From Eledone cirrhosa (taxonomy: Eukaryota), in the NCBI GenBank assembly GCA_964016885.1, contig OZ024742.1:353772001-353836000 (forward strand): DNA of 64,000 bases. Reading direction: 5' to 3'. Position numbers and translations under genes: made by a program. Under the pieces are notes generated by a model. It was not told where the DNA came from, searched no databases, and saw only the letters and a list, made by a program, of their open reading frames with translations. This document shows, piece after piece, positions 16,190 through 58,950 of the stretch (the stretch's first letter is position 1; the number at the start of each line of letters is the position of its first letter).

Positions 16190-16989
16190 ACACATATATT
16201 TTTATTGTTTGACCCGAATTACTTGGTCGTTTTGATTTTGGCTGTGCGGATGATATGTTTAACCATCATCTCAGTGTGTTTGGCCCTTAACGTATGTTGT
16301 AGCTCTGATTCATATGATTCATCGAGCGCTTGCCACACATATCGGACGTTGATTTTCGTTAATTCCTGAGCTGAAAACGATTCTCGCTAATTTATATTTG
16401 TATTAATCTCCAGAGTCTAACTATTGAGCAGTTAATTTTATTGATTTTTTTCAGTTACATATATTGACTGTTGAATGGCTCTGTTATATTTAACCATTCT
16501 GTTGAGAGCTTTAATTCGATTTGTGATATTTTGCATTCTCGCAATAATACACGACTGAATCATTCGCTTAATAGAGGTGTTACCTCCCTTGCTGAATCCC
16601 ACAAGGGGTCAGTAATAGCTACACTATCTATAGCATATTGGAGCAAAACCCGTTGAAAACACGACTGCCTTGTTCATCATCTCACCAGAAGCCCAACATT
16701 CTTTATGTAGGCGGACAGTACCTGATTTGGAGTCGCAGAAACCAATACTGGATTTTACCATCAGTCCAGGGTCCGGGAAAGTATCAACACATATATTTTT
16801 GACCCGAATTACTTGGTCGTTTTGATTTTGGCTGTGCGGATGATATGTTTAACCATCATCTCAGTGTGTTTGGCCCTTAACGTATGTTGTAGCTCTGATT
16901 CATATGATTCATCGAGCGCTTGCCACACATATCGGACGTTGATTTTCGTTAATTCCTGAGCTGAAAACGATTCTCGCTAATTTATATTT
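16190..16989. repeat. Terminally redundant 590-bp unit in (TA)n
   Basis: 16211-16399 is repeated apparently exactly at 16801-16989. Non-coding. Confidence 0.85.
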
Positions 16990-17649
16990 ATATATATATA
17001 TATATATATTGTATATATATATATTGTATATATATATATATATTGTATGTATATATATATATATATATATATATATTGTATATATATATATATATATATA
17101 TTGTATATATATATATATATATATATATATATATATTGTATATTTATATATATATATATACATATATTGTGTATATATATATATATTGTGTATATATATA
17201 TATATATATATATATATATATATGTTGTATATATATATATATGTGTGTATATATATATTGTATATATATATATATATATATATATATATATATATATATA
17301 TATATATATATATATATATATACATACAGTATATATATATATATATATAAATATATATATATATATATATTGTATATATATATATATATATAAATATATA
17401 TATATATATATATCTATTGTATATATATTGTATATATAATTATATATATATGTATATATATTGAATATATATATATATATTGTATATATATATATGTATA
17501 TATATATTTATTCAGGTTTGAGGTTTACCACTGTATAGAGCTGATCTATTCCGTATGGTCAATCGTAATGCAATAATATAGAGAGTACTCAACGTAAGGC
17601 AGTTGAACCCTCTTTGTTTTTGTAGTTGGTGGTGCTATTGCGGAGTTAA

Positions 17650-18307
17650 ATATTATAATGAAATGACAGGAGGCTGGATTTGTGTAAATCCTTGAAAGGT
17701 TTATTATACTATGATCATTTCAATGACCGAGTTCCGTATGAATCCGGTGATATCATCAGGTATTCGAAATATAATACGTGAATGTAATAGATTTAATCCA
17801 TCGGGTTGAAAATCGAGGACCCGAGGGCGACCGCTATTCTGTTCCTTCAACCTCAGTCGGTCGCCCTTTTGCTTGCCTATATCTGACCGGTAGTAGTTGC
17901 CTTTCTTCTTTTAGCTGACATTAACCCTGGCTTCTCTTCTTCCCCTCTTCCACCTTCTTCTCTCTACTTCCTTTCTTTCTTTCGTTTACCCTGTGTCATG
18001 AGATTGACGCTAACTTATGTTCCCATCCCTTTCTGTTTTCGTTTATCTGACCTGTAGTAGAATACTATAAACTTTAACCACGTCACTCCAGGGCCACCGG
18101 CTGAGGTTGAAGGAACATAATAGCGGTCGCCCTCGGGTCCTCGATTTTCAGCCCCATGGATTTTATCAATTACATTCACGTATTATATTTCGAATACCTA
18201 ATGATATCACCGGATTCATACGGAACCCGGTCATTGAAATGATCATAGTATAATAAACCTTTAAAGGATTTACACAAATCCAGCCTCCTGTCATTTCATT
18301 ATAATAT
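17650..18307. repeat. Fold-back inverted repeat (~217-bp arms) of an HHR-bearing pLTR-like sequence
   Basis: 17650-17866 is the reverse complement of 18091-18307. A related single copy lies at about 28095-28250. Confidence 0.9.
17706..17763 (-). ncRNA. Hammerhead-like motif, variant stem II base, palindromic loop III
   Basis: ATAC-CTGATGA-tatcACCG...CGGTcatt-GAAA-TGATCA-TA-GTAT. The inverted-arm copy has a mutated core (CTAATGA). Confidence 0.6.
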
Positions 18308-18363
18308 ATATATATATATATATATATATATATATATATATATATATATATATATATATATAT

Positions 18364-18445
18364 AATCCATGGGCATCATCAGCGAGATGATGATGCCCAT
18401 GGATTATCTGTTGCAAACACACTCAGGGCGAAACAGATTAGCGAT
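18364..18445 (+). ncRNA. Fold-back-truncated hammerhead remnant
   Basis: 19-bp hairpin TAATCCATGGGCATCATCA/TGATGATGCCCATGGATTA, then (a)TGATGA-t-GCCC...GGGC-GAAAC. The inverted arm retains CTGATGA. Confidence 0.45.
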
Positions 18446-19089
18446 AATCTGTCCGAGAGGTGTAATTGTTATTGAGGCGGTTTGTATAATATAATATAAT
18501 TTTATTTTATCATTCTGTCTGCTTCTTAGTTAAATATTTCAAACAAATGTGGTTGTTCAACCCTTGTAATATTATACACACGGTTTACTGTGTTTCTTAC
18601 TGCATATATATTATTATTATACGGCTCAGTATTTTATACTTGGAGCTTAATAATTAGAGGGTTTCAATTGGAGTCATTAACTCTAATTTTCATTTATATA
18701 TATATATATATATTCAATATATATATATATATATATATATATTTATATATATTCAATATATATACATATATATATACAATATATATATACATATATATAC
18801 ATATACATATATATATATTTATATATATATATATATATATATTCAATATATATACATATATATATACATATATATATATATACAATATATATATATATAT
18901 ATATATATTGAATATATATATATATGTATATATATATATATATTTATATTGTATATATATATATATATATATATATATTGTATATATATATATATATATA
19001 TATATATATATATATATATTCAATATATATACATATATATATACATATATATATATACAATATATATATATATATATGATATATATAAA

Positions 19090-56104: not shown

Positions 56105-56290
56105 TATTTCTACTTCAGGCACAAGGCCAGCAATTCACCAGTACATTACTGGTACTTTTTTTTATCGACTCCGTAAGGATGAAAGGCAAAGTTAACCTCG
56201 GCGGGATTTGAACTCAGACCGTAAAGGGACGTAACTATGCTAGAAAGCATGGCGTCCGACTCTCTACCGATACTGCCAATTCCCCGCCCT
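56105..56290 (-). mobile_element. Full-length tRNA-derived SINE with 16-bp target site duplication
   Basis: A-box TGGCAGTATCGG and B-box GAGTTCAAATCC. TSD ATGCATCGAAAATAAT at 56089-56104 and 56292-56307. Confidence 0.9.
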
Positions 56291-56789
56291 TATGCATCGA
56301 AAATAATGTCGTCTATTGTTTTAAGCAAATTTTAGTAATTTTTGTTAATTTTAAAATATATATTATAGTTATAGAGATATATATGTACAATTACATTGGC
56401 AATGGTCCCCAACGACGTAATCTTCAATTATAATGTTCAATTATATCTATGAATACGTAGAGGTATGTAAAGTTTCCAAGACATCTGAATTCTGTTCTAC
56501 AAGATCAGAATGTATTCTACTGGTGGATAAGGATGACGTCACAAAAAGCTAAATTATATTTTGCGGATATTTGTCTAGAGCTGATGTATATTGTGTAAAT
56601 GGACAGCATATCTATATGTTATTTATATAGGAATCAAGGCATATTTACCTTACGTAACTTATCCGATATAATATGAACACGTGCCTAATAAAATAGATTT
56701 TCAAAAACGTATTAATTTTTTTAAATAATTATAAAAATAACGAAAATACTGAAAGGGGCAATGAAGGGCATATAGGTTTAATGGGAATA

Positions 56790-58055
56790 TTGCCAGATAA
56801 ATGGTAGAGTGAGAAGGCTGGTGAGATACAAGCTGCATCAGATTCCAACAACACAAACTATCTTATGGACTATCTTCTCTGGTGACAACGTGTCGCAGCA
56901 GGGATCACAAGGAACTCCTTCGTGACTTACAGGGAATTCTGCGAAAGTGGCGAGAGTACTTTGATGAACGTTTGAATCAACTGTATGTAGTCAATTATGA
57001 TTTCCTGTAACTAATCATTGAAAAATCTGTGAATGTAGCTCTCGCAGTAACAACGACTTTAAATGAATTTCCAGTAGATATCTCGAAGCTGAAAGATGGA
57101 ACGTCGCCCCGTGTGGATGACATGCATTCAGAACTCTTACAATATGGTTATGAGAAACTTCTGCGAAATCTTCACTCTTGGAATGTCAAGATATGGGCTA
57201 GCGAATCCGTACCTGAGGTCTGGAGAGATGCAGTCATGGCTTGTAACAGGAAAATGGTAACAAGGATTAACATATAGGGGTATTTCATTACTTTCTTTCG
57301 TAGGATAAATTGCATGTAGCGTGCCTCTGGATCTTCTACTGACACAGATTGAAGATTGTGTTCTTCTTGAATATCAATCCGTTTTTGTGCTAGACGTAGC
57401 GCTACTGAAATGATCATATCAGCTAGATAGCTTCAGGAGAACTGCGAGAAACAGTGTTTTGATATGTATCTGGTTTTTGTCGATCTCACAAATGCATTTG
57501 CTGCTATTAACAGGAATGCAATGTGGAAGGTTCTCCAGAATCGTTGTTGCCGTGATAAGTTACTTGCTGTAGTTAGGTCTTTCCATGATGACATGAAGAC
57601 TTGGTTTAATGTCAGTGGTAATATGTTGTAGTGAAAAATGGAATTGAACAGGGGGATATTCCAGCACGGACACCGTTTATCATATACTTTGTGACGGTTT
57701 TCTATATCGCAATGAGGAGTTGCAGGCATGATGTTTACATCTACTAACGAACACCTGACAGCATATCTAGCATCAGGTGTTTGCTGCAAAAACAAACATA
57801 ATTACCTCTATCATAATAGGCCTTTGGTATGATGATGATTAAGCCCTTGTACTACACACATAGATTGACATGCAACACCTTTTGAACGCATTTTCTGATG
57901 CTTGCACTTCCGAGCATTGTATGTCAGTCTCAAGAAAACCTGCCCCTGGTAAGCAGTACAATGAACCAAATATCTATGTGTATCGTAATGGTATTGCAGT
58001 GATTAATCAGTTTGTCTACCTGGAAAGCACACTCATCGAGCTGAAGATCCGCATA
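56790..58055 (+). mobile_element. Old RTE-clade LINE RT fragment
   Basis: KLKDGTSPRVDDMHSELLQYG..IWASESVPEVWRDA; QENCEKQ..YLVFVDLTNAF..NRNAMWKVL; MQHLLNAFSDAC; FVYLESTL. Many stops. Confidence 0.8.
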
Positions 58056-58095
58056 AGGTATATATATATATATATATATATATATATATATATAT

Positions 58096-58950
58096 AAAGG
58101 TTTACATATATATATATATATTAAAAGTCATAGATATATATGTGTTTTGCAACAGGTCACGTTGTGGCTCAATGAAAAATTAATAAATTAAACAATCAGA
58201 GCTATATATCATACAATATGTCTTTAGAATCACTAGATATAATATATAACATTTCCTCTCCCAATTAGCATAATTAACCATATACAAATTCAATTAGACA
58301 AAGCTATAATAATAAAGGCTTCTATGAAGAAATCACTGACAAATAACCGAAAGCAGCTCCTTTGCGGCGGCAACGATAGATTATTTATCTAACATTTCGA
58401 CATCATGTAAATTGACCAGATATGCATTCAACCAAACACAATTAGGTGTAGAAATTGAACTTAGAAGAATTGTGTACATACCAACTTATCTCTACCATGA
58501 TTTCATCCGTATTTTAAGATTTCCGATAACGGAATGTTTAGAGTTTCAGTATCATCAGGAGCGAACTCAAAGTTAGACATTTAATTTTCCAAAGTGATCG
58601 CGCCAAAAATACATTCAAAAATGGCTAAGAATCGTGACGTGGCAGCGGTCAAGTTAGAAAGGATGTGATTAGTTGCTTACAGCGGGTAGGCTTAATGCTA
58701 GAAAGCGCAGCCTAATACCGCCAATTTGTATCTCAACCTAACGCGAGATTATTACATATAAAGGTTTACATATACATATATATATATATATATATATATA
58801 TATATATATATATATATAACGTCATAGATATATATGTGTTTTACAACAGATCACATTGTGGCTCAATCAATTGATTTTTTATATGGTTAATTATGCTAAT
58901 TGGGAGAGGAAATGGTATATATTATATCTAGTGATTCTAAAGACATATTT
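58096..58950 (-). mobile_element. Diverged relative of the 676-bp unit: 664-bp terminal redundancy plus inverted arm, decayed HHR at 58490-58561
   Basis: AAAGGTTTACATATA at 58096 and 58760; 58868-58949 is inverted to about 58214-58295. Motif CTC-CTGATGA...GAAA-tcatgg-TA-GAG. Confidence 0.8.

Follow-up and report, generated by a model that had tools for sequence, protein, structure and literature searches.

Penelope-like elements (PLEs) have been named as strong candidates for moving the metazoan retrozymes that have no long terminal repeats (non-LTR retrozymes; PMC7229834), and circles have been proposed as the templates of PLE copies longer than one unit (PMC4209133). Among PLEs the non-autonomous head-to-tail Chlamys elements (MRC1) provide a precedent (PMC8557442), and work on Poseidon_Ac in vitro indicates that two starts define the tail, that sequence 3' of the starts is required and that both target strands are extended (PMC11167929). 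A recent preprint argues that retrozymes derive from the pseudo-LTRs (pLTRs) of PLEs and proposes local tandem amplification (bioRxiv 2026.07.22.740005). The origin of tandem and inverted PLE insertions, the role of the ribozyme and the mover of animal retrozymes are treated as open in passages of PMC8557442, PMC11167929 and PMC7229834. We have analyzed six repeat families, named F1 to F6, in a stretch of 64,000 nucleotides from Eledone cirrhosa (assembly GCA_964016885.1, contig OZ024742.1, positions 353,772,001 to 353,836,000), hereafter the window, which is part of a 3.0-Gb assembly, has 34% GC and is very rich in TA runs. F1–F6 are non-LTR retrozymes, or non-autonomous PLEs, a known class, and they are very probably passengers of PLE machinery. 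Their 3' ends fall on two fixed sites, here called A and B, and head-to-head insertions combine the two.

Layout and fixed 3' ends

The families were named for six direct terminal redundancies (Table 1). All six, reported in a first-pass annotation made from the sequence alone, were recovered by self-BLAST and by direct reading of the window. The periods proposed there of 553, 524, 676 and 664 bp stand; that of 590 is a 597-bp period shortened by a deletion of 7 bp in the second copy; that of 490 is a 478-bp unit with added indels. An inverted arm is present in F2, F3, F5 and F6, the expected four of six. The families had been called unrelated, which does not hold for F5 and F6: they are the sole alignable pair among the six units, 72–74% alike over the whole unit, and leave five lineages. 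A TA run adjoins each fixed 3' end (in the short F5 arm, after a (TC)n stretch), as had been claimed for all elements; the claim fails at the right end of F4 and at position 26135, which adjoins a Helitron-like insert, the true TA-side end of F2 being 24894. Of the window as a whole, 12% lies within 25 bp of (TA)5 or longer.

Full-unit queries gave at first look 2,548 to 4,428 genomic candidates per family, on many contigs. Forty candidates per family were scored and 30 loci kept, only top-scoring copies being sampled; 11 of these 180 loci were removed as duplicates (six overlaps and five segmental copies), which left 169. The layout recurs at these 169 distinct loci with different flanks, an outcome contrary to the suspicion of locus-specific duplication or assembly error. 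Both explanations were rejected, with the exception of one F6 locus repeated in an array on contig C12, of which five copies were dropped. This array (C12:17019000-17421000; loci L171, L174-L177 and L180) is a large tandem segmental array in which a complex F6 insertion occurs seven times at a spacing of ~60 kb.

On a circular map of the unit, the 3' ends fall on two fixed internal sites and the 5' ends vary. A and B are separated by 80 nt in F2, 107 in F3, 121 in F4 and about 80–105 in F5 and F6, and are 88–412 nt 3' of the cut predicted for the ribozyme. Copies are thus not randomly permuted, an outcome that the first-pass annotation had listed as refuting; it is not decisive against the PLE idea, because PLE reverse transcriptase (RT) gives fixed internal start sites, as reported for the system of PMC11167929.

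Among F2–F6, 83 of 140 insertions are head-to-head (two-armed). Both outer ends could be assigned in 63 of these: 61 are A+B, two are B+B and none is A+A (the other 20 have at least one unassigned end). A second sample, drawn with short queries placed upstream of B with no selection for length, gave A+B pairs in F4 (9), F3 (7) and F5 (9) and one B+B call, at loci that partly overlap the main set. In F1 it gave 24 one-armed A insertions and one A+B, so two-armed insertions are rare in this family (1/25); the B end of F1 had been predicted from its hairpin and was later found at locus L429. This A+B pairing of arms is the Penelope 'tail' signature, and with the matching PLE layout it bears out the earlier comparison of the inverted arm with an inverted pLTR. 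The head-to-head arms are probably the outcome of priming by both ends of a break, with A the start for one end and B for the other.

Head-to-tail multimers reach ~3.2 units. Redundancy beyond one unit had been taken as a rule for the families, which it is not: in the short-query sample arms exceed one unit in 10/26 cases for F1, 21/37 for F4, 10/34 for F3 and 7/40 for F5. The units are non-coding, with lengths of 478–675 bp, a GC fraction of 0.31–0.39 and a longest stop-to-stop frame of 103 codons, and blastx against eight PLE open reading frames (ORFs) of this genome gave no match. The earlier view of non-coding, ribozyme-bearing passengers of PLE machinery agrees with this lack of an ORF, with the PLE end geometry and with the hammerhead-like motifs.

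Hammerhead motifs and 5' ends

Three families had been credited with hammerhead ribozymes; a pattern search and inspection by eye showed that the consensus unit of each of the six has a hammerhead-like motif of type I, always on the strand with the fixed 3' end. The motifs of F3, F5 and F6 are near canonical. That of F1 has a U3-A8 core, a published variant for PLEs (PMC4209133), and relatives of F1 show a compensatory change in stem I; a diverged subfamily of F2 also has a U3-A8 core. An Rfam scan of the window (E <= 1) returned no hammerhead family, only microsatellite-driven miRNA/snoRNA matches.

Most arms cross the ribozyme site in F1 (22/26), F4 (32/37) and F3 (32/34), as do 19/40 in F5, and over 276 crossings indels are no commoner there than elsewhere in the unit; in a single F1 copy (L004) 7 additional bases fall exactly on the cut site. 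The 5' ends of F1 lie between -5 and +25 nt from the predicted cut in 8 of 26 arms, against 1.4 expected, and in 8/23 of an overlapping locus set. By passage, 4/26 end there on first arrival and 4/6 on second, and in a hand count 2/21 stop on first arrival and then 6/10 on second (Fisher p 0.006). The sole B arm of F1, at L429, starts exactly at the predicted cut, and the window copy has its 5' end ~17 nt past it. F4 (5/37, 2.2 expected) and F5 (5/40, 1.8 expected) show a slight excess near the cut, and no clear pile-up was seen in F2 (3/43), F3 (1/34) or F6 (0/32). The distribution of ends suggests that the F1 ribozyme cuts in vivo, and it is likely that the ribozyme had left many F1 templates with a free 5' end.

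A bulged hairpin beyond the ends

A hairpin is found 3–16 bases 3' of the fixed ends, in sequence left uncopied at the end concerned. It runs from N-Y-U-C through the two sides of an upper stem around a loop to a U-N bulge and G-A-R-N. Above the bulge each of the four Watson-Crick pairs is seen, and compensatory changes occur from one subfamily to another. A descriptor of this form matches 10 of the 12 ends and 133 of 6,360 other positions (2.1%), a contrast that counts for less in that the descriptor was drawn from the same F1–F6 ends that it scores. As an independent test, the hammerhead motifs of all loci were clustered and the end class was read by eye in 16 other clusters. The hairpin is present in at least half of the tailed copies of eight of these clusters and in 1/6 copies of another; a further cluster is ambiguous, and the remaining six, which include two coding Neptune-like families, show no such hairpin. 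Given its place outside the part copied at that end, it is fairly likely that the hairpin acts as a binding mark for the RT.

Coding PLEs and the candidate partner

Two endonuclease (EN) queries returned 65,132 and 35,700 coding PLE candidates from the genome, few of whose PLE families were sampled; clades were assigned by motifs from PMC8557442 and not by tree. The account of the Hydra clade in passages of that paper fits the families that carry CxCx5C, CxxC/CxH and RW[KR]. One of them (L022/L411) is a 3.4-kb element with a broken ORF, a U3-A8 hammerhead, RWK and CxCx5C. It has the same cis hairpin and (TA)n target as the F units: a long hairpin follows B in 20/30 loci, four internal copies have a short one after A, and in 10 loci the partner arms end at B, the query having selected A-type main arms. 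The hairpin was found after B in 0/10 and 0/7 cases in two Neptune-like families. On these grounds the partner enzyme is likely to be of the Hydra clade.

Direct homology between the units and coding PLE ends, of the kind by which a non-autonomous PLE resembles its partner, was not found: the units have no alignable match to two coding PLE 3' consensus sequences. Among 250 flanks, 25 have a PLE ORF within 500 bp, with two direct head-to-head joints. Joints of this type without TA unite an F2 arm with a Neptune-like ORF (L043 ~2050-2110), with a Hydra-like ORF (L047 ~1440-1560) and with an F6 arm (L038 ~1190).

The window itself contains coding PLE fragments at 11841-12545, 5880-7725, 23987-24805 and 54629-54822, all on the minus strand. 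One is of Hydra type; the others are Neptune-like and have, at other places in the genome, ORFs of 1,200 aa and ends that reach into the ORF start. Pfam did not detect the GIY-YIG domains of such fragments. Several PLE families of the Cx2-5CxxC type (3' ends L286, L288, L241-L269) have a different, unbulged long hairpin across their ends, and some families of this type carry U3-A8 hammerhead cores.

The template of an insertion

Overlapping pieces within an insertion are less different than the mean against other loci in 158/194 tandem and 134/164 arm pairs. Non-consensus alleles are shared within an insertion 3–11 times (tandem) and 3–4 times (arms) more often than between insertions, in pairs that number several per locus and are not independent. 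Neighbouring units are concordant at 271 and discordant at 124 non-CpG subfamily sites, and the strongest recurrent polarised difference between units is 4/21. A stage of one unit that regenerates multimers is rather likely, if not universal; we tentatively propose, at a little under even chances, that the RNA is then closed into a circle and that the RT makes no jump from end to end. A search of sequencing runs listed none recorded as RNA that holds the units. Contigs across the F4 unit joint occur in three runs of one study, which is possibly the source of the assembly, and are not counted.

The explanation that on balance we favour is that F1–F6 are hammerhead units in TA microsatellites, copied by a borrowed Hydra-clade enzyme from ribozyme-processed RNA. 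A Hydra-clade Penelope enzyme, acting in trans, would cut a TA tract, reverse transcription would start at two hairpin-marked internal sites of the RNA, and the template would be ribozyme-processed, at times by way of a unit-length circle.

Several observations, together with the non-independence of the allele-sharing pairs and the origin of the hairpin descriptor, weigh against this explanation. Allele sharing may also come from gene conversion or from identical units at the source locus, and of seven further long multimers L413 is mosaic (64 differences between units 1 and 2, 4 between units 2 and 3) and L412 partly so. The hammerheads of F2 (C-C-G-A-U-G-A core) and F4 (without stem II) are atypical, and PLE insertion in vitro did not need ribozyme cleavage in the experiments reported in PMC11167929. 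The stops of F1 suggest a free, cut 5' end of a linear RNA more than a closed circle. F1-A and F4-A do not fit the hairpin descriptor, yet F1 uses A in 25/25 insertions and B once, and an older F5 relative at window positions 22061-22513 is two-armed and B+B. On the side of the enzyme, a second Hydra family (7/7 partner arms at B) has a hairpin variant with a 1-nt bulge, and the 3' consensus of the Hydra family at window positions 11841-12545 contains neither hammerhead nor hairpin in clear form; Neptune-like (Cx2-5CxxC) coding families, which lack the bulged hairpin where checked, also target TA and have two ends. The units show no homology beyond TA-rich matches to three Hydra terminal regions, and the F2-arm joints, one with a Hydra-like and one with a Neptune-like ORF, favour neither clade.

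The alternative that survives best keeps the same elements and enzyme and would take as templates linear multimers made by read-through of a small number of long source loci and cut in part by the ribozyme, so that a circle is unneeded and the redundancy comes from tandem masters. It agrees with the seamless junctions at the ribozyme site, with F1 5' ends that stop there mostly on second arrival, with the mosaic multimers and with uncut RNA as the main substrate in vitro (in the assays described in PMC11167929). An internal, hairpin-marked start would, we infer, shorten linear templates at each round, however, and neighbouring units mostly share subfamily alleles with no strong position-specific difference; we consider this alternative unlikely. 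Less probable still is a linear ribozyme-cut monomer on which the RT starts near the 5' end, jumps once to the free 3' end and halts at the 5' end on its second pass. This would account for the pass-then-stop pattern of F1 and for the extra bases of L004, and mosaic multimers would arise from jumps between molecules; against this, extra junction indels occur in only 1/53 F1 crossings and in no family overall, and F2, F3 and F6 have no clear pile-up of 5' ends. That the units are terminal repeats of coding PLEs, either solo or left by internal deletion, which tandem duplication of DNA multiplied after insertion, is very improbable: birth from pLTRs with local tandem amplification has been proposed (in parts of bioRxiv 2026.07.22.740005), L413 units 2 and 3 are nearly identical and a coding parent could be missed among top-scoring copies, but the units hold no ORF remnant, unit runs into unit without a coding segment at 169 loci, subfamilies 70–85% alike keep the same non-coding unit, and young F1 copies 96–99% identical are dispersed.

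Taking copying by a Hydra-clade enzyme as the preferred reading, we put forward a wider and more speculative scheme, which we hold somewhat less likely than not. Unrelated ribozyme RNAs may form a guild that parasitises Hydra-clade enzymes by a convergent or inherited hairpin (stem, U-N bulge, stem) present twice per unit. With the hairpin beyond the copied end, such an RNA lineage could survive only if the enzyme reads round a unit RNA made by the ribozyme; a dimeric enzyme would write both ends of the TA break, one subunit per hairpin, and F1 would record cleavage in vivo.

Features of the window

The features of F1–F6 are collected in Table 1. F4 is followed by a local 42-bp duplication that continues to 31176. 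The Helitron-like insert that splits F2 (24995-26134) is non-coding, 1.14 kb long, starts with TC, ends with a hairpin and CTAG, lies between A and T and holds a 91-bp tandem. A Helitron-type rolling-circle identity was rejected for F1–F6, which have fixed ends without CTRR; such marks occur only in this insert.

Table 1. Positions in the window of the redundancies, arms, hammerhead motifs and hairpins of F1–F6 (identities from self-BLAST; A and B, fixed 3' end sites).
Feature	Position	Strand	Remarks
F1 direct redundancy	16189/16786		215 bp, 96%
F1	16190-16993	+	one arm with 1.35 copies of a 596-597 bp unit; fixed 3' end A
F1 type I hammerhead-like motif	16649-16777	+	U3-A8 core, predicted cut 16773/16774
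F1 B-site bulged hairpin	16302-16327, second copy 16892-16917	+	
F1 A-site hairpin	16407-16429	+	imperfect
F2 direct redundancy	26132/26685		387 bp, 97%
F2 3' terminal piece	24894-24995	-	ends at site A beside (TA)20; severed by Helitron-like insert
F2 main arm	26135-27071	-	549-553 bp unit, 1.7 units
F2 hammerhead-like motifs	26288-26423, 26841-26976	-	C-C-G-A-U-G-A core
F2 hairpins	26563-26578 (A), 26635-26660 (B)	-	
F2 inverted arm	27071-27337	+	3' end at site B beside (TA)n
F3 direct redundancy	28967/29445		328 bp, 88%
F3 main arm	28976-29772	-	unit ~478 bp, 1.65 units, end A
F3 hammerheads	29171-29250, 29661-29740	-	
F3 hairpins	29047-29077 and 29525-29555 (B), 29428-29444 (A)	-	
F3 inverted arm	29768-29883	+	end B
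F4 direct redundancy	30517/31041		70 bp, 97%
F4	30520-31110	-	one arm of 1.13 units (unit 524 bp), end B
F4 minimal hammerhead	30611-30655	-	without stem II
F4 hairpins	30898-30918 (A), 31013-31036 (B)	-	
F5 direct redundancy	41341/42017		59 bp, 93%
F5 main arm	41341-42075	-	675 bp unit, end A
F5 hammerhead	41751-41825	-	
F5 hairpins	41420-41442 (B), 41995-42012 (A)	-	
F5 inverted arm	42077-42263	+	end B
F6 direct redundancy	58055/58761		122 bp, 84%
F6 main arm	58089-58870	-	unit ~664 bp, F5 relative, end A
F6 hammerhead	58490-58561	-	
F6 hairpins	58167-58202 (B), 58731-58748 (A)	-	
F6 inverted arm	58869-58961	+	end B

A seventh two-armed hammerhead family occupies 17510-18310, with its motif at 17718-17759 (-), a ~138-nt tail and a bulged hairpin with a long loop, and an older F2 relative, 80% alike, lies at 19083-19637. 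Elsewhere in the genome at least 25 further hammerhead clusters were found in TA tracts, in ~1.2 Mb of locus DNA, many with two end classes. Further long inverted-repeat elements lie at 39347-40841, 19649-20872, 55039-56280 and 12447-12699, one of which has hammerhead-like cores in both arms (39419-39474 and 40714-40769). A frameshifted element of the LINE (long interspersed nuclear element) type at 47051-50131 (+) has an endonuclease-like start and an RT domain (Pfam RVT_1, E 5e-24).

Relation to described systems

The idea of a circular template served by PLEs in trans is already in print (2014, 2020, 2026). Our search of the literature, which left subscription papers and supplements outside, found no published description of the A+B rule in retrozymes, of a start-site hairpin that points to Hydra-clade elements or otherwise links them with retrozymes, or of 5' ends at the ribozyme cut. 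F1–F6 supply short natural substrates, a candidate enzyme clade, a candidate recognition hairpin of 16–70 nt and predicted start sites precise to a few bases, with which the questions left by earlier work can be taken up in the in vitro assay already established for PLEs. Tools for RNA-templated insertion would gain from a portable hairpin that loads RT.

With the metazoan non-LTR retrozymes, as presented in passages of PMC7229834, F1–F6 have in common small, low-GC, non-coding tandem units with a type I hammerhead motif, dispersed as head-to-tail copies alongside PLEs. Their units of 478–675 bp are longer than the 170–400 nt RNAs described there, and those passages mention none of three traits of F1–F6: insertion at (TA)n, inverted arms and a pair of fixed ends. 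Circles have been seen for the retrozymes of PMC7229834, whereas F1–F6 are known here from DNA alone. The EN+ PLEs of the Hydra clade, in the account of PMC8557442, resemble F1–F6 in their partial tandems, inverted 5'-truncated copy, one-end tail, hammerhead and (TA)n target; to these F1–F6 add the fixed 3' ends and variable 5' truncation expected of non-autonomous EN+ PLEs. F1–F6 differ in having no ORF and in tails of 80–120 nt, compared with 30–40 bp in the Hydra clade, for which the relevant passages describe no start-site hairpin. Like F1–F6, Poseidon_Ac (Frangieh et al. 2024, PMC11167929) has two internal RT starts downstream of a hammerhead; it is coding and its start lies in an AC-rich stem-loop, whereas F1–F6 are non-coding, and the sections of that paper on RNA ends give none at the ribozyme cut, where the genomic 5' ends of F1 pile up. 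Closest in scope is the preprint of Li, Clavereau and Pollet 2026 (bioRxiv 10.64898/2026.07.22.740005), which treats the same class and proposes the same partnership with PLEs, with units of 51–972 bp that cover the range of F1–F6. The vertebrate link between retrozymes and PLEs drawn there is one of co-occurrence and pLTR homology, whereas that of F1–F6 is one of insertion geometry and a shared hairpin.

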